From the IMG/VR virus record IMGVR_UViG_3300027541_000721, positions 1 through 64,000 of that record: a stretch of 64,000 bases of DNA; one strand, 5' to 3'. Within the stretch, counting starts at the first letter, position 1; every line of letters starts with the position of its first letter. Position numbers and translations under genes: made by a program. Under the pieces are notes generated by a model that saw nothing but the letters and a program-made list of their open reading frames with translations, did not search any database and was not told the DNA's origin. Of the stretch, positions 5,794-35,953 are shown in pieces. Source of the stretch: an uncultured virus (IMG/VR IMGVR_UViG_3300027541_000721) (Duplodnaviria; Heunggongvirae; Uroviricota; Caudoviricetes).

Positions 5794-8700
5794 TCAAGAG
5801 TTTTCTAGTAAATCTAATCTAGTTTTTAATATATCAACTTCTTCTGATAATTCCTTCACTGCATTTACAAGAACTGGAATCATATGATCTGATGTCAGTT
5901 TTAGATTTTCTGGATCTTTTGAATCCACAATAACAGGATTTTCTCCTTCTGCTTCTAAAACATTCTGAGCACTGAATCCATATCTGCGTTTTCCTTCATC
6001 ATCTTTTAATTCACCAGTTTCACGGTTTTTGAATGCATATTCAATAGGAGTAATATTTTGAAGGAATCCTCTACCGTGAGGAACAGGTCCAAAAATACAC
6101 TTATCACGACAGTCAGAAACTACTGTCCAAGCAACTTGAATAAGAGCATTTGTATGAGCATTATTTCCCATAATAATGTGATTGTTTTGTGTTGTGACAT
6201 TACACAATCCACCCACTCCAACTCCAGAACTACATCCAAAGAAGATATTATTGGATCCAGTGGTGTTGTTGCGACCAGCAGCAGTTCCAAAGAAGTTGTT
6301 GTAGCATCCAGTGGTGTTGCAGCAACCAGCATTAAATCCAAAGAAGTTGTTGTTGGATCCAGTGGTGTTGGAGTAACCAGCATATCTTCCAATAAAGGTG
6401 TTGTAGCATCCAGTGGTGTTTCTGAAACCAGCACTTTCTCCAAAGAAGTTGTTGCAGGATCCATTGGCGTTGCAGTAACCAGCACTACTTCCAAAGAAGT
6501 TGTTGTTGCATCCAGAGGTGTTAAATCGACCAGCATTACATCCAAAGAAGGTGTTGTTGGATCCAGAGGTGTTGGAGAAACCAGCACTTTGTCCAAAGAA
6601 GTTGTTGTGGCATCCAGTGGTGTTGCAGTAACCAGCACTATTTCCAATAAAGGTGTTGTAACGTCCAGTGGTGTTGTATCGACCAGCACTACTTCCAATG
6701 AAGGTGTTATTGGATCCAGTGGTGTTGGAGAAACCAGCACATCTTCCAATAAAGGTGTTAGCGACTCCAAGGGTGTTGCATCGACCAGCACTCTCTCCAA
6801 AGAAGTTGTTGAAGTTTCCAGTGGTGTTGCTGGATCCAGCAAATGGTCCAAAGAAGTTGTTGTTGATTCCAGTGGTGTTGGAGAAACCAGCACTATTTCC
6901 AAAGAAGTTGTTATTGTCTCCAAAGGTGTTGCATCGACCAGCATATCTTCCAATAAAGGTGTTGCTGTTTCCAGAGGTGTTGGAGCAACCAGCACTTAAT
7001 CCAAAGAAGGTGTTATTGGCTCCAGCGGTGTTGGAGCAACCAGCACTTCTTCCAATAAAGGTGTTGTGGCATCCAGTGGTGTTGTTGCGACCAGCATTAC
7101 ATCCAAAGAAGTTGTTGTAGGATCCAGTGGTGTTGTATCGACCAGCATTACGTCCAATAAAGGTGTTGTTGGATCCAGTGGTGTTGCATCGACCAGTATA
7201 ACATCCAAAGAAGGTGTTGTAGGATCCAGTAGTGTTGTATCGACCAGCACCATATCCAATAAAGGTGTTGTTAGTTCCAGTGGTGTTGCAGTAACCAGCA
7301 CTAGCTCCAATAAAGGTGTTGTTGGATCCAGTGGTGTTGTATCGACCAGCAAAAGGTCCAAAGAAGTTGTTGTTAAATCCCGTGGTGTTGGAGTAACCAG
7401 CATATCTTCCAATAAAGGTGTTGTAGACTCCAGTGGTGTTGCAGTAACCAGCACTTATTCCAAAGAAGTTGTTGTCACGTCCAGTGGTGTTTCTGAAACC
7501 AGCACTTTCTCCAAAGAAGTTGTTGCAGGATCCAGTGGTGGTGCAGTAACCAGCACATCTTCCAAAGAAGTTGTTGTTAAATCCAGTGGTGTTGTATCGA
7601 CCAGCTTTGGATCCAATAAAGGTGTTGTGGCATCCAGTGGTGTTTCTGCAACCAGTATATTGTCCAAAGAAGTTGTTGTTGGATCCATCGGTATTGCACT
7701 GACCAGCACAATAACCAGCAAAGAAGTTGTGTAATCCATAGCCACCACCATTTCCTGCTTCTGAACTATAGATGGTTCCACAAGAACCACTTAAAGTGAA
7801 TTCTCCACTAAATGCAGATCCATTAATAAAAAGACCATTATCATTAACCTTTAGTCTTTCACAAGTACCAGCAGCAAGAACTACAGTATTTGTAAGTCCA
7901 TAAGTTCCAGTATAAGTACCAATTATGAGGTTATTAGATCCTATTACTACGGAGCAACCAGCATTACATCCAAAGAAGGTGTTGTTGGATCCAGAGGTGT
8001 TGGAGAAACCAGCACTTTGTCCAAAGAAGTTGTTGTGGCATCCAGTGGTGTTGAAGCCACCAGCACTAAGTCCAAAGAAGTTGTTGTAGCATCCAGTGGT
8101 GTTGAAGAAACCAGCAGCATTTCCAAAGAAGGTGTTGTTGGATCCAGTGGTGTTTAAGGCACCAGCACTTTGTCCAATAAAGGTGTTGTAGGATCCAGTG
8201 GTGTTGGAGGAACCAGCACCTTGTCCAAAGAAGTTGTTGTTGCATCCAATGGTGTTGGAGCAACCAGCAGAAGGTCCAAAGAAGTTGTTGTTGAATCCAG
8301 AGGTGTTTTGGTTACCAGCCCAGCCTCCAAAGAAGTTGTTATTGGTTCCAGTGGTGTTGTTTTCACCAGCAGCACGTCCAATAAAGGTGTTGTAGGATCC
8401 AGTGGTGTTGCATCGACCAGCACAATAACCAGCAAAGAAGTTGCTGCCTCCATAACCACCATTTCCTGCTTGTGAACTATGAATGGTTCCACAAGAACCA
8501 CTTAAAGTGAATTCTCCACCACCACCACCAGTAAATGCAGATCCATTAATAAAAAGACCACTATCATTAACCTTAAGTCTTTGGCAACTACCAGCAGCAA
8601 GAACTACAGTATTTGTAAGTCCATAAGTTCCACAATAAGAACCAATTATGAGGTTATTAGATCCTGTTACTACGGAGCAACCAGCATTACATCCAAAGAA

Positions 8701-9963
8701 GGTGTTGTTGGATCCAGAGGTGTTGGAGAAACCAGCACTTTGTCCAAAGAAGTTGTTGTGGCATCCAGTGGTGTTGTATCGACCAGCATTACATCCAAAG
8801 AAGGTGTTGTAGGATCCAGAGGTGTTGGAGAAACCAGCAGCATTTCCAAAGAAGGTGTTGTTGGATCCAGTGGTGTTTAAGGCACCAGCACTTTGTCCAA
8901 TAAAGTTGTTGTAGGATCCAGTGGTGTTGGAGTAACCAGCAAAAGGTCCAAAGAAGTTGTTGCTGCCTCCACTGGTGTTGGAGTAACCAGCATTATATCC
9001 AAAGAAGGTGTTGTTGGATCCAGTGGTGTTGAAGAAACCAGCATTACATCCAAAGAAGGTGTTGTAGGATCCAGAGGTGTTGGAGAAACCAGCATAATAT
9101 CCAAAGAAGTTGTTGTAGTATCCAGTGGTGTTGTTTTCACCAGCACCACGTCCAAAGAAGTTGTTATGCCTTCCAGAGGTGTTTTTGTAACCAGCACCAT
9201 CTCCAAAGAAGTTGTTGTTCGATCCAGAGGTGGTGCAGTAACCAGCACATCTTCCAAAGAAGTTGTTGTTCGATCCCCAGGTGTTGTAGAAACCAGTATA
9301 TTGTCCAAAGAAGTTGTTGTTGGATCCATCGGTATTGCACTGACCAGCACAATAACCAGCAAAGAAGTTGTGTAATCCATAGCCACCAGTTCCTGCTTCT
9401 GAACTATAGATGGTTCCACAAGAACCACTTAAAGTGAATTCTCCACCTGCACTAAATGCAGATGTAGTAACTCCAGTAACAAGACCCTTTGCGTTAACAG
9501 TAATGCTTGGAATTGAAGTTGAAGAACCAAAAGTTCCTACATCAGTATTAACAGTTGCAAGAGTAGTAGTAGTATTAACTGAAGTAACATCGCCAGTTAA
9601 ATTAGGAATATTTGTTGTACTAGTAGCAGTACCAGTAAGACTTCCTACAAATCCACCTGAAGAAGTAATGATGCCACTAAAGTTTCCTGATGTTGCAGTG
9701 ATAATACCAACAGAAATATCAGGAGTTCCAGTAAGTCCTTGAGCATTAGTAGCAATACCTGCAGTAGTTGCATAGGTTGCTATTCCTGCTGAAGATGCAT
9801 AAGTTATTGCCACATATGGCAAATTAGTCCAAGAAGTTGTTCCAGTTCCTATTTTAAATTTATTAGTATCAAGCTCAAGTCCCAATTCTCCTTCTGCAAG
9901 AACTGGGTTTATATTGGTCCATTCTGTAGAAGATCCTCTTCTAAATTGAATTTGAGTTGCCAT
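5794..9963 (-). CDS. Long repeat-rich tail fibre/adhesin: Mtd-N-like N-terminus, three arrays of 17-aa repeats, C-terminal S74 intramolecular chaperone
   Basis: MATQIQFRRG...W...NPVLAEGELG.E.DT.KFKIG.G...W..LPY; repeats F(F/I)GxxAGxxNTTGxxN(N/T); SDCRDK...YGFSAQ...IPVLVNAVKEL coiled-coil end. Confidence 0.85.
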   Translation of the reverse strand: MATQIQFRRGSSTEWTNINPVLAEGELGLELDTNKFKIGTGTTSWTNLPYVAITYASSAGIATYATTAGIATNAQGLTGTPDISVGIITATSGNFSGIITSSGGFVGSLTGTATSTTNIPNLTGDVTSVNTTTTLATVNTDVGTFGSSTSIPSITVNAKGLVTGVTTSAFSAGGEFTLSGSCGTIYSSEAGTGGYGLHNFFAGYCAGQCNTDGSNNNFFGQYTGFYNTWGSNNNFFGRCAGYCTTSGSNNNFFGDGAGYKNTSGRHNNFFGRGAGENNTTGYYNNFFGYYAGFSNTSGSYNTFFGCNAGFFNTTGSNNTFFGYNAGYSNTSGGSNNFFGPFAGYSNTTGSYNNFIGQSAGALNTTGSNNTFFGNAAGFSNTSGSYNTFFGCNAGRYNTTGCHNNFFGQSAGFSNTSGSNNTFFGCNAGCSVVTGSNNLIIGSYCGTYGLTNTVVLAAGSCQRLKVNDSGLFINGSAFTGGGGGEFTLSGSCGTIHSSQAGNGGYGGSNFFAGYCAGRCNTTGSYNTFIGRAAGENNTTGTNNNFFGGWAGNQNTSGFNNNFFGPSAGCSNTIGCNNNFFGQGAGSSNTTGSYNTFIGQSAGALNTTGSNNTFFGNAAGFFNTTGCYNNFFGLSAGGFNTTGCHNNFFGQSAGFSNTSGSNNTFFGCNAGCSVVIGSNNLIIGTYTGTYGLTNTVVLAAGTCERLKVNDNGLFINGSAFSGEFTLSGSCGTIYSSEAGNGGGYGLHNFFAGYCAGQCNTDGSNNNFFGQYTGCRNTTGCHNTFIGSKAGRYNTTGFNNNFFGRCAGYCTTTGSCNNFFGESAGFRNTTGRDNNFFGISAGYCNTTGVYNTFIGRYAGYSNTTGFNNNFFGPFAGRYNTTGSNNTFIGASAGYCNTTGTNNTFIGYGAGRYNTTGSYNTFFGCYTGRCNTTGSNNTFIGRNAGRYNTTGSYNNFFGCNAGRNNTTGCHNTFIGRSAGCSNTAGANNTFFGLSAGCSNTSGNSNTFIGRYAGRCNTFGDNNNFFGNSAGFSNTTGINNNFFGPFAGSSNTTGNFNNFFGESAGRCNTLGVANTFIGRCAGFSNTTGSNNTFIGSSAGRYNTTGRYNTFIGNSAGYCNTTGCHNNFFGQSAGFSNTSGSNNTFFGCNAGRFNTSGCNNNFFGSSAGYCNANGSCNNFFGESAGFRNTTGCYNTFIGRYAGYSNTTGSNNNFFGFNAGCCNTTGCYNNFFGTAAGRNNTTGSNNIFFGCSSGVGVGGLCNVTTQNNHIIMGNNAHTNALIQVAWTVVSDCRDKCIFGPVPHGRGFLQNITPIEYAFKNRETGELKDDEGKRRYGFSAQNVLEAEGENPVIVDSKDPENLKLTSDHMIPVLVNAVKELSEEVDILKTRLDLLENS
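6230..9372 (-). repeat. Coding tandem 51-nt repeat in three arrays (about 14, 10 and 30 units) separated by two near-identical linkers
   Basis: Plus-strand unit approximately TCCAAAGAAG(T/G)TGTT..(GGA)TCCAGTGGTGTT......ACCAGC; linkers at about 7735-7945 and 8445-8670 are near-identical. Confidence 0.95.
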
Positions 9964-28899: not shown

Positions 28900-28907
28900 T
28901 ATTTATG
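28900..28907 (-). promoter_or_regulatory. Late promoter CATAAATA for the oxygenase/collagen cassette
   Basis: Overlaps the stop codon of 28903..35643; 19 nt upstream of the ATG at 28880. Confidence 0.6.
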
Positions 28908-31900
28908 AGAAATTATAGAGTGCTATATTACCATACCAAGTTGTACCTTGATTTGGAGTAATGAAAATCCAAATATCAGTTTTTCCTGCATCTTGAGTTC
29001 TAATTGGACTCAAGTTATTTGGGAATTTAACATTACTTGAAGGATTCCAAGAAACAGAATATGGACCACCAGTTCCATTTGTTAAAATTAAAGTGAAACT
29101 GCTGCCAACATTAGGAAGATTAATTGGATTTGTGATTGTAAATGTAGAATTAGCAGTTAAAGTTCCAATGAATACATTTCCATCATTTAGATTAATATTT
29201 CGATTTCCTGCAATATCTCCCATGTTATAAACAGTTTCACCATATTTTTGTAATACAACATCAGTAAGATTTTTACCATTAAATGTAGAATTTGCATTTA
29301 CATTTATTGAAGTAAATTGTGCTGAAGCACGAACAGCCGCACCAATAACTGTACCATCAATATTTCCACCATTGATGTCAACAGTAGCAAGTTGTGCAGT
29401 GCCATCAACAATCAGATTTTGATTAACCGTTACAATTCCACTGATTCTTGCATTGCCAGCAACATTTAAATTCTTAGCAATACCCACACCACCAGAAACA
29501 ACAAGTGCTCCAGTATTTGCATTATTCGATTCAGTAGTTCCAAGAATATTAACTCTAGAAGTAATAGAATTAGAAGCAATATTTACATTATTAGCATTAC
29601 CAAAAGCATTAATTGTAGTAACGTTTGTATTGAGTAAATTGAATATTCCAGTTGAAGTAGATATAAAATTAGATCCACCTAAAGTCAGATCTCCTGAGAT
29701 TAGAGTATTTCCATTTGGATCCACTCTTAATTTAGCATCTACATCAAAATTCTCATTACCATATGGAACTGTTACTAGAGGATTTGCTAACTTCCAGCTA
29801 TATCCATCACTTGTATCAATACCTGCATACCAACGAATATTTGAGTTATTATGAGTGATGTCCCAAGACATTGCAACATCACCAGTTCCACCCTGATTAA
29901 TCTTAAAGTGAGCACCTCTAAGATTCTGACCAGAATTATTTTGATATGATGTTATTGTTCCTGAAGATCCAACTCTAAATTTCTCACTATTGTTGGTAAA
30001 AATACTTACATCAGCAGAATCTACAGTAATTAATCTAAGTGCAGCAGTTCCACGATGTAAAATATCAGAAGTTACATTTCCAATTCCAGCAGATCTTCCA
30101 ATGCGAAGTCCATAATCAGGGAATACTCTAACATCATTATTGAATTCTGCATAAGATGTTTGATTTGTATTACCTACACCAAGTCTCAATACAGATGCTT
30201 CATTAATATATGCAGTTACGACTCCTAAATTAGGTACACTAATATTTCTTGTCGTAGAGATTGAAACATTTCCATCCGCAACTTTGAAATTAGAGTTTAC
30301 AATTACATCACCAGATTTAGATTTGAGAACCAATTCTCTAGTTTTGGTGTCAATAATATGAGATGCTGCAATTCCTACTCTAATTTCATCAAGTTCAATT
30401 GAATCTACAAAAAGATTATTATTAATATAAACATTTCCTGAGAATGTAGATACACCAACTACTTCTAAATGATTGAGTCTAGATATACCTCTCTCATGAA
30501 TCTGAGTATAAGATGTTCCAAGTCCTGTGATTGGATCAATTCCAGTTCCAGTAAATCTTGCAGTTCTATTAACAACAATATCTTCAAATTCAACATCACC
30601 CAAACTTTGAGTTTGATCAAAAACTACTTGTCCAGTTACACGAAGGTTTTGAATTAAAGTATCACCGTTAACACTAAAATTATAATTACCTACGGCAATA
30701 GTCCCTATTCCAAGTTTATCAAATTTAAAGTCTAAAATATCAGGAGTTCTACTAATAGGTCCCCAAGGTCTCCATTCATTTTCCAAATAAATGTGTCCAA
30801 TATAACCATTGGTTGGGTTTGAAATATAAGAAATATCACCAAGAGTTGGATTTGGAATGATTGCAGAAGTTGGAGTAGATAATCCAACAGTAAATAGTTT
30901 TTCTTGAGATGCTGTTCCACGAATATAAAAATTCTTGGTTAAGATTCCATCTTCAGAAAGATTAGTGATCTTTTGAGTAAAGTTTACTGGTCCATAGAAT
31001 TGAGAACTTTGATTATTATTTTCTCCACCTTCTACAGTAATTCTTTCACGAACAAGAATTTCATCAAATACACCACTCAATCTATTGCTATTTTCACCCT
31101 CTGCATCATCACCAGTGTAAGTAAGAATTGGTGCTTCAATTACTTTTTCTTCTCCAGTTGCAGAAATAAGTTTCTTACTTCCTGAGAAAAATTCTCCACT
31201 GTCATTCATACCAGTATAAACTACTGTTCCACCTCTTTGCTCTCTTGCCTGAGATGTTAAAATATCATCCTCATCAAGAATTCTATTTTGTTTTTGTGGT
31301 AAACCAGTAGAATAGTTACCTGGACCATATCCAAGATATTCAAATGTATGTCCAGATGCCCTCATGAATGAAGGTCTACGTAATTCCATAGGAAGAACTT
31401 TAATCTTCTTAATTAAAGATCCTACAGGTGCAGTAGTTTTAACAGTTCCGAATTGTCCACGGAGAATATCAAATTCATTACCATTTGCAGTACTTGCAAG
31501 TCTAACAATTTCAGAGTTTATAGCAATATAATCTCCTCTATAAAATCCATTAGAACTTTGTAGTTGAATAATTGTACTATTTTCTGTTATGCCTTGAGAA
31601 ATAGTTGTGGTTACACCTGCATAGATTGTAGAAGCACGAGATCCTAAATTCTCTTCACCTCTACCAAGATTTTTAGCATTAGCAGATATACCATGCTTAA
31701 ATACAAATCCAGTAGTTGAAGATTTAGTTTCTGTAACGATTCCTACATTAAAGGTAAATGTATTGATTCCAATGTTATCACGGACTACAAATGTACTATT
31801 GTACATCGTATGACCACTGCCAACTATAGAAATTTTATTTCCAGGAAGTAATCCGTGAGGTTGACTTGTAGTTACAGTAACAATTCCCGAAGATACATTA

Positions 31901-34900
31901 GTAAAACTAAATGAAGTTATTCCTACTCCTTTAGATGCCAAATATCCAATAGGAACATCATTATTGCTATTTTCTACATAGGAAGAAATTCCAGTTGGAT
32001 GATAAATTTTAATAGTTTTACTATCAAGAACATCGATAATTTTAAAAGTTCCATTCAATGGAATTGTAGAATAGAATCCAGAAAGATCTAATGCATCATT
32101 TACATTATTATTAATATCCTGAACCGTAACTACAGCATTATTTCCAGCAGATCCTCCTTGAATTTCAAGTCTCTGTCCTACAGTATGAGCAGATCCAACA
32201 TCAACCAATCTCAAAGTTGAAGGATTGATTGCACCAGTTACAGTAGTATTAAATCTACAGGTAGCATCTTCTTCTAAAAGGAATTGATCTATTAGATTTG
32301 CACTATAGATGCTAGAACTAATTGGATATCCTGCACCAGGAGAAACTACAGATAGTGACTTAATTGAATTTAACTTATGTTCTATATCAGTATAAAGGGT
32401 AATTGTAGTATTACCAGTTCCAGAAATAGAAAGTCCAGTAATACCAAATCCAACTCTACTATTTCTAAGTAATTGATTTAATGCTTCACGAGTTGTAGAT
32501 TTCTTCTTATCATCTGTTACAACTCTTCCTAAGATATTTAAATCTGCGTAACTGATCGATGGTAATGGATCTGGTGCATAATTATCTCTATCTGTCTGTG
32601 GATAAAGATTTCTAACATCTTGATTGAAAGTTTTTTCCGATACACCATAACCAACAATTTCTTCAGGTCTTACACTCGAAGACAACATAATAATGTGGTA
32701 AATACCATCTTGACCATCTTCACCTGGAATGTGTCTCTTGACAGTGTTTACACGATAAGCAAAATAATTATCAAGATATGATTCTCTAGATACTAAAGGA
32801 AGATCATCTCTTTGTTGTCTTGTTGTACGAGAATTTATTGCATTTAAGAAGTTTCCTGGATTAGTAGATACCCCAGAAATTCTATATTTAAATGATTTAG
32901 AATCTAATACATCAACAACAGGATAAGATCCATTGAAAGTAGAAACAATTCCTGTTCCTGAAGTATTATTAGTACTCTTAATCTTTTGAACTTTTACAAT
33001 ATCTCCAGGGATAAAGTTATGAGGAACTTCAGTAGTAATGGTAACTACTTGTGAATTATCGACAATACTATCTGCTATTGCATCGATAATAACTTTTTCA
33101 TTTCTCAAATCTACTGGACTCTGAAGGTTAGTGCCTTCATCAATAGTCAAACTAGAAATTCCAACATTCTTAGATTCTTGAAGAACAAATCCTGCCTGAG
33201 GTGGTCTTGCAAAAGTATATTCTTTTGGAATTACATAACGAAGTTTATAAATCTTATCTTCAATTGCTCTATTATCTAATTTTCTCTTAAAATAAGTTGA
33301 AGGACTTTCCAATCCTAATATTTCAGTTCCAAGTCCAACTACTGCACCATAAATTTTATTTTGAGCAGTGAATTGAGAACTTGTAAGATACCAAGATCCC
33401 ACATTTTCATCCCATTGGACTGGATGACCTAGATCTCCAGGGAACTTATCACTTACTGTACTTAAAACAGTAATTCTTCCGCCATTATTTCCAATACCTT
33501 GAATTGGAGTTCTAGATATTGCATCATTTAATGAAAATGCAAGTTGTATTTGATTATCAGATAAGAATCCACCAGTAATTGCATAATAAACTTTATCAAT
33601 TTGAATACCATCAGGTGCTTGACCTGTATCACTAAAAATTCTTACTCGTTCACCATTAAACAACTGATGGTTTTGAGTTAGAGTTAAAATATTTGAAGAT
33701 ATATTATTGAAACCACCAGTTCTTGCAATTGTATATTCTTTTTTCGATGTTACACCTTCTCCACCACCAGGGACTGGCATGTATATTGGAGATTCAAAAG
33801 TTTGAAGATCTGTTCCTTGAGTAACAGTTAAATATAATTTATCTTGTAATTTAGCACCAATTCGATATCCATCAGTCTGAGAAGGTGGTGCAACATCTTT
33901 AGTACTATAACTAGAAATATATAATCTCTTTAAAGTATTTGATGGATTTATAGTTTTATAAGTATCAATTGATAACCAAGTTACTTGGTTTTCATTAGTA
34001 GTAATTTCTTTTGGTGGAATAATATGAGTGATGTATCCAACATCATCCCTATCAAAAGATTCTCTTCTATATCCAACACTTTCTAATGAAATTGCACCAA
34101 AGTTTGAGTTAGAGTTAGTGATGGACATGTCACCACCACTTTCAGTTACAAAGTGCTTTGCAAAACCGATGGCAAAGATAGAGACAGATTGGATAAATCC
34201 ATCATTAGAGGTTTTAATATGGAAATTTTCGTATTCTGGTTTATAAATTGCTCTAGAATTAGTATGTAACGGTCTCTCTGTGCTGTTATTAGGAAGAGTT
34301 AAATTATCATAATAAACACCATCCTCATAAATCAAAAATGCATTATCATCTTTCTGAAGGGAGACTCCCGTGTATTGAGCAACAACCATGGATTTAAATC
34401 CATCTGCTTTACTACCATCTCCATGCATACCACACATACCATAAACTGAACGCAATGAACAGTTAAAGATATATGGAGATGCGGAAGATACTGTATCACT
34501 TTCTACAACAACAGTAGCAGTGTCAAAAGCAGCAGGATCTGGCAATAAATTAGTAGGAGTAGATACTGCACTAAAAGTAAAAGTAGTTAAACCTACAACT
34601 TCTCTTACAACAAATGACCCATTATATGATGCAGGTTCTTCAGTTATGCCAGAGATAAGAACTGGGGTATCAATAAACAATCCATGTGGTTTAGGAGTTC
34701 CTGTTTGAAGATCTGCTGTAGTTACAGTAATAATACTATTATCACCTGTACCGTCACCATTTCCTGCACGAATACTTGAAATGCCTAAGGGATTTGATTG
34801 AAGAGATCCAACAATTCTGTATTCATCTATACTTGGTTCAAAATCATTATTAAGTGGATAATCACCCAAACCTCTTCCAGAGATGTCACCATATGCTCTG

Positions 34901-35643
34901 GCAACTTTATAATAATACATTTGCAGATCTGTAAGATCTGTTTGTTCATATCCAAGACGTGCTTTATTTACTCCATCAGCATATGTAAAAGCTGTAAGTT
35001 TATGGTGAGAAAAATTAGGAACAGAACGATTGTCTGTGTAATCTTTAAATACTGTCTTTGTAGTATCTGCGTCAAAGAATGTAAATGTACTGAAGTAACA
35101 AGTACCAGTTACATTAAAAATACTAGAAAGATCGACATCATCATCATAAGGATTGGGTATATAAAGTGGTCTAATCTTGGTTTTTCTAAGGTCTACACCA
35201 ATAATAGATGTACCACGAGGAAGAATTACTCCACCACTAATAGAATTAAATTTATAAAGATCATTATTGGTATCGAAAATATCAAAATTTGAAGAAAAAG
35301 ATAATGGATCTAAAGTAGTAGTCTGCCAAGTATCTTTACCTACTCTTTTTTTATATACTGCACTACCATTAACATCTTGGATTGAATATCCTGGTCTATT
35401 ATCAATATAATGAGTTGATGGATATACCATAATGGTAGTCCTATCATTTAAATCATTATTCTTACCTTGTTGGTATGAAAATCTTGCTGCTTCAATTAAT
35501 GCTCTTTGAATTGAAACAAATGGTCTTACAAGACTATCTCCACGATTCTCTATGCTGTCTGTAGCATCAAAATTGTTAGGATCGACATATAGTATATTCC
35601 CTTCAGGATTACGAAGGAAGTTGTCTAAACGAGATAAAGGCAT
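28903..35643 (-). CDS. Giant cyanomyophage virion structural protein (2246 aa)
   Basis: MPLSRLDNFL....GNILYV.P...DATDSI.N.G....RPF..IQRAL.EAAR N-terminus; repeated T...HG/HN...GD.V.I.G beta modules; fibre-like C-terminus. Confidence 0.85.
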   Translation of the reverse strand: MPLSRLDNFLRNPEGNILYVDPNNFDATDSIENRGDSLVRPFVSIQRALIEAARFSYQQGKNNDLNDRTTIMVYPSTHYIDNRPGYSIQDVNGSAVYKKRVGKDTWQTTTLDPLSFSSNFDIFDTNNDLYKFNSISGGVILPRGTSIIGVDLRKTKIRPLYIPNPYDDDVDLSSIFNVTGTCYFSTFTFFDADTTKTVFKDYTDNRSVPNFSHHKLTAFTYADGVNKARLGYEQTDLTDLQMYYYKVARAYGDISGRGLGDYPLNNDFEPSIDEYRIVGSLQSNPLGISSIRAGNGDGTGDNSIITVTTADLQTGTPKPHGLFIDTPVLISGITEEPASYNGSFVVREVVGLTTFTFSAVSTPTNLLPDPAAFDTATVVVESDTVSSASPYIFNCSLRSVYGMCGMHGDGSKADGFKSMVVAQYTGVSLQKDDNAFLIYEDGVYYDNLTLPNNSTERPLHTNSRAIYKPEYENFHIKTSNDGFIQSVSIFAIGFAKHFVTESGGDMSITNSNSNFGAISLESVGYRRESFDRDDVGYITHIIPPKEITTNENQVTWLSIDTYKTINPSNTLKRLYISSYSTKDVAPPSQTDGYRIGAKLQDKLYLTVTQGTDLQTFESPIYMPVPGGGEGVTSKKEYTIARTGGFNNISSNILTLTQNHQLFNGERVRIFSDTGQAPDGIQIDKVYYAITGGFLSDNQIQLAFSLNDAISRTPIQGIGNNGGRITVLSTVSDKFPGDLGHPVQWDENVGSWYLTSSQFTAQNKIYGAVVGLGTEILGLESPSTYFKRKLDNRAIEDKIYKLRYVIPKEYTFARPPQAGFVLQESKNVGISSLTIDEGTNLQSPVDLRNEKVIIDAIADSIVDNSQVVTITTEVPHNFIPGDIVKVQKIKSTNNTSGTGIVSTFNGSYPVVDVLDSKSFKYRISGVSTNPGNFLNAINSRTTRQQRDDLPLVSRESYLDNYFAYRVNTVKRHIPGEDGQDGIYHIIMLSSSVRPEEIVGYGVSEKTFNQDVRNLYPQTDRDNYAPDPLPSISYADLNILGRVVTDDKKKSTTREALNQLLRNSRVGFGITGLSISGTGNTTITLYTDIEHKLNSIKSLSVVSPGAGYPISSSIYSANLIDQFLLEEDATCRFNTTVTGAINPSTLRLVDVGSAHTVGQRLEIQGGSAGNNAVVTVQDINNNVNDALDLSGFYSTIPLNGTFKIIDVLDSKTIKIYHPTGISSYVENSNNDVPIGYLASKGVGITSFSFTNVSSGIVTVTTSQPHGLLPGNKISIVGSGHTMYNSTFVVRDNIGINTFTFNVGIVTETKSSTTGFVFKHGISANAKNLGRGEENLGSRASTIYAGVTTTISQGITENSTIIQLQSSNGFYRGDYIAINSEIVRLASTANGNEFDILRGQFGTVKTTAPVGSLIKKIKVLPMELRRPSFMRASGHTFEYLGYGPGNYSTGLPQKQNRILDEDDILTSQAREQRGGTVVYTGMNDSGEFFSGSKKLISATGEEKVIEAPILTYTGDDAEGENSNRLSGVFDEILVRERITVEGGENNNQSSQFYGPVNFTQKITNLSEDGILTKNFYIRGTASQEKLFTVGLSTPTSAIIPNPTLGDISYISNPTNGYIGHIYLENEWRPWGPISRTPDILDFKFDKLGIGTIAVGNYNFSVNGDTLIQNLRVTGQVVFDQTQSLGDVEFEDIVVNRTARFTGTGIDPITGLGTSYTQIHERGISRLNHLEVVGVSTFSGNVYINNNLFVDSIELDEIRVGIAASHIIDTKTRELVLKSKSGDVIVNSNFKVADGNVSISTTRNISVPNLGVVTAYINEASVLRLGVGNTNQTSYAEFNNDVRVFPDYGLRIGRSAGIGNVTSDILHRGTAALRLITVDSADVSIFTNNSEKFRVGSSGTITSYQNNSGQNLRGAHFKINQGGTGDVAMSWDITHNNSNIRWYAGIDTSDGYSWKLANPLVTVPYGNENFDVDAKLRVDPNGNTLISGDLTLGGSNFISTSTGIFNLLNTNVTTINAFGNANNVNIASNSITSRVNILGTTESNNANTGALVVSGGVGIAKNLNVAGNARISGIVTVNQNLIVDGTAQLATVDINGGNIDGTVIGAAVRASAQFTSINVNANSTFNGKNLTDVVLQKYGETVYNMGDIAGNRNINLNDGNVFIGTLTANSTFTITNPINLPNVGSSFTLILTNGTGGPYSVSWNPSSNVKFPNNLSPIRTQDAGKTDIWIFITPNQGTTWYGNIALYNFS

Positions 35644-35674: not shown

Positions 35675-35681
35675 TATTTAG
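35675..35681 (-). promoter_or_regulatory. Late promoter CTAAATA for the 2246-aa gene
   Basis: Lies just downstream of a terminator, 31 nt before the ATG. Confidence 0.6.
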
Positions 35682-35692
35682 GAGTTCTATAT

Positions 35693-35718
35693 ACAACAAA
35701 ACCTCCAATAAGGAGGTT
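35693..35718 (-). terminator. Intrinsic terminator
   Basis: AACCTCC-TTATT-GGAGGTT followed by TTGTTGT. Confidence 0.7.
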
Positions 35719-35762
35719 CTGAAGTCACACTTTTCGGGTCACTGTAGGAATTCCTCCCACCG
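35693..35762 (-). ncRNA. Candidate ~70-nt small RNA
   Basis: Bounded by a consensus sigma70 promoter and an intrinsic terminator; 5' hairpin GUGGGA/UCCUAC; only tiny GUG-started ORFs. Confidence 0.55.
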
Positions 35763-35767
35763 AATAA

Positions 35768-35796
35768 ATTGTAAATTAAAATGTATTAACTGTCAA
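35768..35796 (-). promoter_or_regulatory. Sigma70-type promoter
   Basis: TTGACA (35796-35791), 17 nt, TACAAT (35773-35768). Confidence 0.8.
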
Positions 35797-35953
35797 GTTC
35801 TCCTCGCAGTTCAGCAAGTTTTGCTGTAGCAAGACATTCAACACATGTCCAATAGGTTTCACCACTAATAGGAAAATTATTATCCGTAAAGTGTGCTGCA
35901 ATATCTTCCTGAAGCTCTCTAAGGTCTTGAAGTGTGTCTCGCTCAATGTACAT
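35786..35953 (-). CDS. Small early hypothetical protein, 55 aa (MYIERDTLQDLRELQEDIAAHFTDNNFPISGETYWTCVECLATAKLAELRGELDS)
   Basis: Hand-translated; directly downstream of a consensus promoter, with AGGA SD. Confidence 0.75.
   Translation of the reverse strand: MYIERDTLQDLRELQEDIAAHFTDNNFPISGETYWTCVECLATAKLAELRGELDS

Follow-up and report, generated by a model that had tools for sequence, protein, structure and literature searches.

A conserved small-RNA unit of T4-like cyanophages with a core complementary to bacterial tRNA-Val(CAC), a candidate anti-tRNA RNA

The window analysed here, a stretch of 64,000 nucleotides of DNA, is part of a T4-like cyanophage and carries on its minus strand, at 35693-35796, a promoter-to-terminator unit (the window element) with a predicted RNA of about 70 nt (the window RNA). 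The promoter, the core and the 3' hairpin of this unit are conserved, and its core and head match the tRNA-Val(CAC) of two bacterial phyla in order and in spacing. The reading that we favour, at somewhat better than an even chance, is that of a conserved T4-like cyanophage unit whose RNA, presumably transcribed from its own promoter, would bind the GUG-reading tRNA-Val of the host and withdraw it from translation. More tentatively, at a little under an even chance, the element would belong to a cyanophage class of anti-tRNA RNAs with at least three interchangeable designs, the window RNA acting as a three-point clamp that may halt GUG-rich host translation with no protein involved. The parts of the element and its neighbours are, in the direction of the minus strand:

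35786..35953, minus strand: 55-aa ORF, a neighbour lying outside the RNA, with its own TTGACA-17-TACAAT promoter at 36009-35981
35791..35796, minus strand: -35 hexamer TTGACA, which overlaps the end of the coding sequence of the 55-aa ORF (its final codons)
35768..35773, minus strand: -10 hexamer TACAAT; promoter pattern present in 30/37 distinct relatives
35756..35761, minus strand: G35761, the predicted +1, and the head GGUGGG, antisense to nt 70-75 of tRNA-Val
35744..35760, minus strand: 5' hairpin GUGGGA/UCCUAC, a predicted fold, in sequence unlike the usual CGAUAC hairpin of the family
35736..35744, minus strand: core segment 1, CAGUGACCC, antisense to nt 44-52 of tRNA-Val(CAC), which span the variable loop and the 5' strand of the T stem
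35731..35735, minus strand: 5-nt purine spacer GAAAA, facing tRNA nt 39-43 (3' strand of the anticodon stem) and non-complementary to it
35725..35730, minus strand: core segment 2, GUGUGA, containing the Val codon GUG, reverse complement of anticodon-loop nt 33-38
35693..35721, minus strand: 3' hairpin or intrinsic terminator with an interrupted U tract (terminator-like hairpin at 35721-35697), showing compensatory changes
35675..35681, minus strand: CTAAATA, after the terminator, which we take to be a T4-type late promoter for the downstream tail-fibre gene
28903..35643, minus strand: 2246-aa tail-fibre gene marking the conserved site (PHROG 529 tail fibre, E 4e-160 for the first 400 aa)

The TTGACA-17-TACAAT promoter described in the original prediction is present at 35796-35768 on the minus strand. 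It scores 11/12 and is among the two best of the 49 promoter-like sites between 30000 and 42000; as a class, such weak-consensus sites are not above chance (49 observed, 56.6 expected). The RNA sequence of about 70 nt quoted in the same prediction was exact, and the layout proposed for it (a 5' hairpin, a central segment and a terminator) was reproduced in a fold of 73 nt that contains both the 5' and the 3' hairpins (-25.8 kcal/mol, z -3.21, 1/200 shuffles as good). In these predictions the RNA encloses its head in the 5' hairpin and leaves only part of the core unpaired. The unit was also rightly said to be GC-richer than its flanks, its GC content (0.46 over 35693-35761) exceeding that of the spacers on either side (0.27 and 0.17). 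Taken alone, the terminator-like hairpin at 35721-35697 is unremarkable, five such hairpins being observed for 4.4 expected. The probable +1, G35761, sits 6 nt past the -10 box, which is the modal distance in the relatives (19/27). The window unit is strongly supported because it is conserved, and not because of these local scores.

The window element belongs to class B1, defined by the 20-nt core GTGACYCRAAAWGTGTGA, that is CAGUGACCC-N5-GUGUGA. The conservation of this central sequence, which the original prediction had made one of its tests, was observed in 55 viral stretches, 37 of them distinct with the window included. The exact 5' half of the window element was found only in two window-identical contigs; its 3' half occurs in 80 viral stretches, and 38 distinct ones among them, 25 from class B1 and 13 from the sister class B2, are followed by the same tail gene. 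Among the 37 distinct B1 loci, the tail gene starts at most 150 nt past the core in 31, the element has its own promoter in 30 and the late-promoter motif [AC]TAAATA stands behind the terminator in 35. The genes upstream of the element differ between loci and comprise many different genes and tRNAs, and the B1 core is fixed while these upstream genes and both hairpins vary. The spacer is AAAAA in 31 loci, GAAAA in 4 and AAAAT in 2 (n=37). The sequence of the 5' hairpin varies freely, the relatives folding a hairpin at the same place, and the usual CGAUAC head is absent from the window element, L464 and L492. The tail-fibre gene has relatives in 458 records of cultured phages, of which 451 bear the name Synechococcus, Prochlorococcus or cyanophage. 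When loci were chosen by the tail protein, 14/61 distinct loci carried an element (nine of class A, four of class B2 and one, the window element, of class B1) and 47/61 carried none. BLASTN of the whole region against cultured phages gave one weak match, Sf-FR1, which is of class B2. Elsewhere in the window, a 1389-aa ORF (5794-9963, minus strand) has long repeats, and other frames are also open there over hundreds of codons.

The search for covariation across cyanophages, proposed together with the original prediction, was positive for the 3' hairpin. In alignment A1, 89% of the cells pair, with compensatory changes at pairs 57-84 (CG 24, GC 7, UA 2), 64-77 and 65-76, and 39 cells are changed on both sides, compared with 12.7 in shuffles (0/500 reach the observed value) and at most 14 in slid controls; this counts as support and not as a probability, because the sequences share a common descent and one of them supplied the structure. 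With a gapped alignment, RNAalifold found, besides the inner pairs of the terminator, only core pairs that are invariant and therefore uninformative. In agreement with the earlier statement that the RNA could not be assigned to a known family, Rfam 15 gave no match at the gathering threshold in the window (manA, wcaG, glnA, abiF, PhotoRC-II and T-box included), the best local score for the window element having an E of 1.1, and on 36 related loci it matched only tRNA and Yfr1. The exact core had 6 matches in 185,579 species genomes, none in a cyanobacterium and none with the flanking architecture, and therefore no host copy of the RNA was found. In L761, L492 and L464, a possible beta-barrel gene precedes the B1 core, which is flanked by two unrelated hairpins, and a tRNA-like element called by neither ARAGORN nor Rfam is found 3' of the core; manA was considered for L492 and L761, and Rfam gave no match.

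The core is the reverse complement of nt 44-52 and 33-38 of bacterial tRNA-Val(CAC), with exact spacing. In the standard tRNA numbering, applied to L789, the positions opposite GUGUGA are nt 33-38, those opposite the spacer are nt 39-43 and those opposite CAGUGACCC are nt 44-52. Genomes were searched with the core pattern of the window, the spacer being left open and the reversed pattern serving as control. In the phylum of G032 (Actinomycetes) the pattern was found in 39/201 genomes, three of which are unpublished and counted in the tally only, and the reversed control in 2; in the phylum of G035 (Verrucomicrobiia) the figures were 15/151 genomes and 0. The fetched loci are tRNA-Val(CAC) genes read antisense in 27/30 cases (17/20 from Actinomycetes and 10/10 from Verrucomicrobiia), two of the remaining three being 3'-half fragments of tRNA-Val(CAC) and one a chance match. 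These tRNAs are proxies from two other phyla and not the tRNA-Val(CAC) of the host cyanobacterium, which would be expected to carry UCACAC at nt 33-38 and GGGUCACUG at nt 44-52. No cyanobacterial tRNA-Val(CAC) appeared among the matches listed (best 60 of 71 plasmid records and 60 of 424 phage records), its sequence did not turn up in the literature searched, and four sequencing runs analysed on the proxy tRNA contained a mixture of the tRNAs of other organisms. According to the available part of PMC3152331, tRNA-Val(CAC) is present in some picocyanobacteria.

The 22 nt that precede the core provide a match that is independent of the core search pattern. Compared with the antisense of nt 53-75, they match over at least 6 nt in 34/37 loci and over at least 7 nt in 30/37, the corresponding values for a control stretch being 3/37 and none. 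In the window RNA, the head GGUGGG faces nt 70-75 of the L789 tRNA (acceptor strand, discriminator and CC of CCA). This match at +1 was reached by 188/20000 shuffles, and a 6-nt match anywhere in the shuffled head by 1797/20000; over its first 13 nt, the window RNA forms 9 Watson-Crick pairs with the tRNA end, or 11 with G-U pairs included.

By duplex folding, the top six partners of the window RNA among 264 distinct tRNAs from the fetched loci are all Val(CAC) (-35.7 to -40.0 kcal/mol), the other tRNAs having a mean of -23.5 kcal/mol (sd 4.4) and the best non-Val(CAC) one reaching -34.7 kcal/mol, in a ranking that is circular for the core and that ignores tRNA tertiary structure and modifications. 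The tRNA-Val(UAC) of phage S-SM1 pairs equally well with the window RNA (-39.3 kcal/mol), whose head fits that acceptor stem better, against -30.6 for the tRNA-Val(UAC) of Syn9 and -33.2 for a Val(GAC), and either isoacceptor may therefore be the partner of this variant. The base facing anticodon position 34 is a G in 14/14 elements from loci chosen by protein only, which favours C34, though a G-U wobble with U34 is possible. GUG makes up 75/1434 Val codons in the window phage and 31/52 in a GC-rich, Yfr1-bearing cyanobacterial locus; codon use fails to explain the choice of Val, because GUG is no rarer than other NNG codons in the phage. A wobble-complement search in three B-carrying phage records returned the gene itself and three matches with 2 mismatches, and no phage target. 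The matches listed for the looser pattern GTGNGAGGAR were mostly Shine-Dalgarno sequences.

Two sister classes occupy the same site, and GUGUGA is the one element common to all three phage RNA classes. Class B2 has the form GGCGAUAC...CCCCUUCC-GUGUGAC-hairpin, with Sf-FR1 as a cultured example; it mirrors tRNA-Val nt 33-46 unbroken, plus nt 62-71, and has a complementary CUUCC where the window element has its non-complementary spacer. Class A, organised as promoter-(UCC)GUGUGAAGGAAGUGC-hairpin, mirrors the anticodon loop, the 5' stem strand and the D stem of tRNA-Val. It is present in an estimated 500 or so viral stretches, 120 of which were fetched; a class-A stretch had matches in 219 records of cultured phages, 216 of which belong to cyanophages, and cultured carriers include Syn9, S-SM1, Sf-FS3, S-B43 and S-PRM1. 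The stem strands implied by class A (CUUCC) and class B2 (GGAAG) pair with each other. Real A and real B elements were never found together (0/17 B records, 0/9 A records): the class-A word occurs in 2/17 B records, both times devoid of promoter and hairpin, and a B-like word in 3/9 class A records, none being a real element. This mutual exclusion is only suggestive because most records are fragments; three complete genomes carry neither class A nor class B. The sister elements are often located among phage tRNA genes.

Some class A loci have further particularities. In L811 and L812 (S-SM1 and Syn9), the element follows an ATAAATA motif and not a -35/-10 promoter, and therefore the timing may be late in some phages. 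L064, L098, L130, L134, L146, L159 and L165 have a longer, conserved and folded insert with GGCACCCCGACAAGGGA between the class A head and a tRNA-Gly, for which no Rfam match was obtained. At a locus outside this group, L012:1700-1900, a tRNA-Leu-like gene, not called by ARAGORN, directly follows the promoter and has an apparent group I intron inside.

Concerning the mode of action, we propose that the host RNA polymerase would transcribe the unit from G35761 early in infection, the host-type promoter being the one basis for this timing. GUGUGA would then pair, in the manner of a codon (GUG), with the open anticodon loop, the 5-nt A spacer would step over the anticodon-stem strand, and CAGUGACCC would pair with the variable loop and invade the T stem; the head of the window RNA, once its hairpin opens, could pair with the acceptor/CCA end. 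A tRNA so held might not be charged or not be delivered, which we regard as the weakest step. GUG-rich host mRNAs would be slowed, and the AT-rich phage, with its GUU and GUA codons, would be little affected. The original prediction of a free-standing, trans-acting sRNA is retained, with promoter, core and 3' hairpin conserved over 37 loci, and its proposed mRNA or protein target is replaced by a tRNA as the likely target. Four contig sets from RNA libraries cover the region at a low and flat level, also over the tail genes, and may reflect DNA carry-over; three of them break between 35630 and 35742 and one (X17) spans the hairpin. It is known that phages bring additional tRNAs with them and that hosts use nucleases to destroy tRNAs. 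If our reading is true, an RNA that puts a single host tRNA out of action by base pairing would add a new arm to this phage-host conflict over tRNAs and a new route to translation takeover in the main primary producers of lakes and seas. The natural designs would illustrate possible ways for a short RNA to invade a folded tRNA, and the proposal is directly testable since the sister classes are present in cultured phages.

The tRNA complementarity applies equally to an RNA that binds tRNA-Val and protects or repurposes it, either by shielding its anticodon loop from a host anticodon nuclease or by blocking a defence that uses or senses the tRNA. A tRNA paired at its loop, variable region and acceptor end presumably could not decode, however, so that shielding would fail to preserve its function, and no tRNA-Val(CAC)-linked defence of picocyanobacteria was found in the literature searched. 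We consider this explanation unlikely. In its favour, the anticodon loop is the one site covered by all three classes, GUG does not stand out in codon use, and tRNA-cleaving defences and the phage tRNAs that counter them are common in the literature, as far as the texts available indicate.

Less probable still is that the element is the remnant of an inverted tRNA-Val 3' half, of the attachment-site type, kept as a DNA spacer or as support for the terminator. An attachment site requires unbroken identity, whereas the mismatches observed here are patterned and fixed (spacer AAAAA in 31/37). The unit's own promoter reads the antisense strand in 30/37 loci, the other half of the tRNA is mirrored by class A, and the core is constant although neither the upstream genes nor the two hairpins are. 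These observations weigh against two that agree with a remnant: the element is absent from 47/61 syntenic loci, and 3'-half fragments of tRNA-Val(CAC) in bacterial genomes (L781, L797) start at the anticodon loop, this half being the one mirrored by class B.

We assign a similarly poor chance to a sponge for the host sRNA Yfr1 (motif ACUCCUCACAC) which, in the manner of Yfr2, would relieve the repression of porin mRNAs. GUGUGA is indeed complementary to UCACAC of Yfr1, the window head GUGGGAGGAAU resembles the 5' end of Yfr2 in the available text of PMC2518516, and Yfr2 is described in the part available of PMC6778093 as counteracting Yfr1 in a reporter assay; porin-like genes are also present in some of these phages. 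With Yfr1 genes taken from metagenomes (L663 being confirmed by Rfam), class A pairs at -8.8 to -18.8 kcal/mol. The window RNA reaches -8.5 to -9.2 kcal/mol, a value equalled by 18-20/100 shuffles, and shuffles as good numbered 8-23 for B1, 3-9 for B2 and 0-29 for A out of 100. Moreover, Yfr1 explains 6/15 fixed core bases and none of CAGUGACCC, CUUCC and CGAUAC, which are all explained by the tRNA. The sponge was ranked lower because its pairing is near that of shuffles and because the tRNA matches were found.

It is highly improbable that the region is no more than the 3' UTR of the 55-aa ORF, as the original prediction had considered, together with its terminator, or a leader of the tail gene. 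The RNA-library contig X17 spans the hairpin and the U tract of the terminator is interrupted, as such a UTR would allow, but the element follows many different upstream genes and tRNAs, only 2/50 loci of the 55-aa ORF, both window-identical, have the B1 core, and in 35/37 loci a late-promoter motif belonging to the tail gene follows the terminator. As for the 5-residue peptide also suggested earlier, the GGAGG and the frame GUG ACC CGA AAA GUG UGA are present, and the relatives retain the frame as a consequence of the fixed core, but coding is scarcely credible since GGAGG lies within the predicted 5' hairpin and is found in no other of the 37 distinct heads, the variation is mostly non-synonymous (CAA/CGA, AAA/AAT; one ACC/ACT) and class B2 has no start codon.

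The binding and withdrawal of tRNA-Val that we favour has likenesses to several known systems. The T-box riboswitch reads the tRNA anticodon with a codon and contacts the tRNA 3' end. The window RNA would do both; it is, unlike the T-box, free-standing and about 70 nt long, has no Stem I or antiterminator, would use extended antisense pairing and gives no Rfam T-box match. Phage and prophage sponges against sRNAs, AgvB against GcvB and SprY against RNAIII, are described in the available part of PMC12197685. They are short base-pairing RNAs of phage origin, each equipped with a promoter and a terminator, and they neutralise a host non-coding RNA, as the window RNA would. The likely target of the window RNA is, in contrast, a tRNA contacted at three separate sites, and that part of PMC12197685 names no tRNA target for the sponges.

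A single-stranded motif containing GUGUG is shared with the Yfr2/Yfr1 pair (PMC2518516, PMC6778093, PMC2662882, PMC2796815, as far as their accessible text goes), and the hairpin-core-terminator layout with Yfr1 (PMC2190773, accessible portion). The Yfr2 family has a conserved central 12-nt loop on a long stem (PMC2662882, same portion); neither the fold nor the alignment of the window RNA has this loop, nor does the RNA have an unpaired 5' motif complementary to Yfr1, its head being degenerate and folded. The Yfr1 arrangement (RF01116), ACUCCUCACAC between two hairpins, is unmatched in G000, whereas the model does find the host locus L663. From the sections available of PMC3152331 and PMC11726456, the tRNA genes of cyanomyoviruses tune the host tRNA pool and thus address the same problem, an AT-rich phage in a GC-rich host; they add tRNAs that read A or U, while the window RNA would subtract one that reads G.

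Among the non-coding RNAs described for T4-like cyanophages are CfrI, manA, wcaG, glnA, abiF and PhotoRC-II (PMC9964418, PMC2864571, available text), from which the window RNA differs by the lack of any Rfam 15 match in the window or in 36 related loci. In the openly accessible literature searched, which included the accessible portions of PMC6191309, PMC9692554 and PMC3861242, the papers listed described neither the B1 family nor any phage-encoded RNA that is antisense to a tRNA. The candidate list of PMC10690425 may include the window RNA with no function attached. The present analysis contributes the B1/B2 design and the link of all three classes to a single tRNA; if true, attack on the host by a tRNA-clamping RNA would be undescribed for phages.

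The neighbouring 55-aa ORF was found at 50 viral loci with 59-100% identity, and has no PHROG and no Pfam match above the cut-off; only the two loci identical to the window, of the 50, have a B1 core. The same overlap of the ORF stop with a -35 box drives a sister-class RNA in L010, L011, L016, L022, L025 and L028. The promoter of the ORF is of the early type, and in several relatives the stop codon of the ORF lies across the -35 box of the RNA that follows. Dyad-like boxes such as AAAGTGGCACA or AACTGTCCAC precede many of these ORF promoters (L003, L011, L016, L020, L024, L030) and are possibly sites for phage or host regulators.

Two other arrangements related to Yfr1 were observed. In L202:401-444 (also L223, L261, L262, L251 and L252), a minimal promoter-GUGUGAGGAG/A-terminator unit lies between two ORFs on the opposite strand, in phages related to the siphovirus S-CBS4 (the match being annotated as ribonucleotide reductase). 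Such units pair with Yfr1 at -15.8 to -23.6 kcal/mol, with 0-1/100 shuffles as good, and are good candidates for a true Yfr1 sponge. The viral contigs L214:2-444, L176, L758 and L764 have a Som-porin-like gene with an SLH domain, whose leader begins in L214 and L176 with GUGUGAGGAAA, a Yfr1 target site (-12.3 kcal/mol, 0/100 shuffles).
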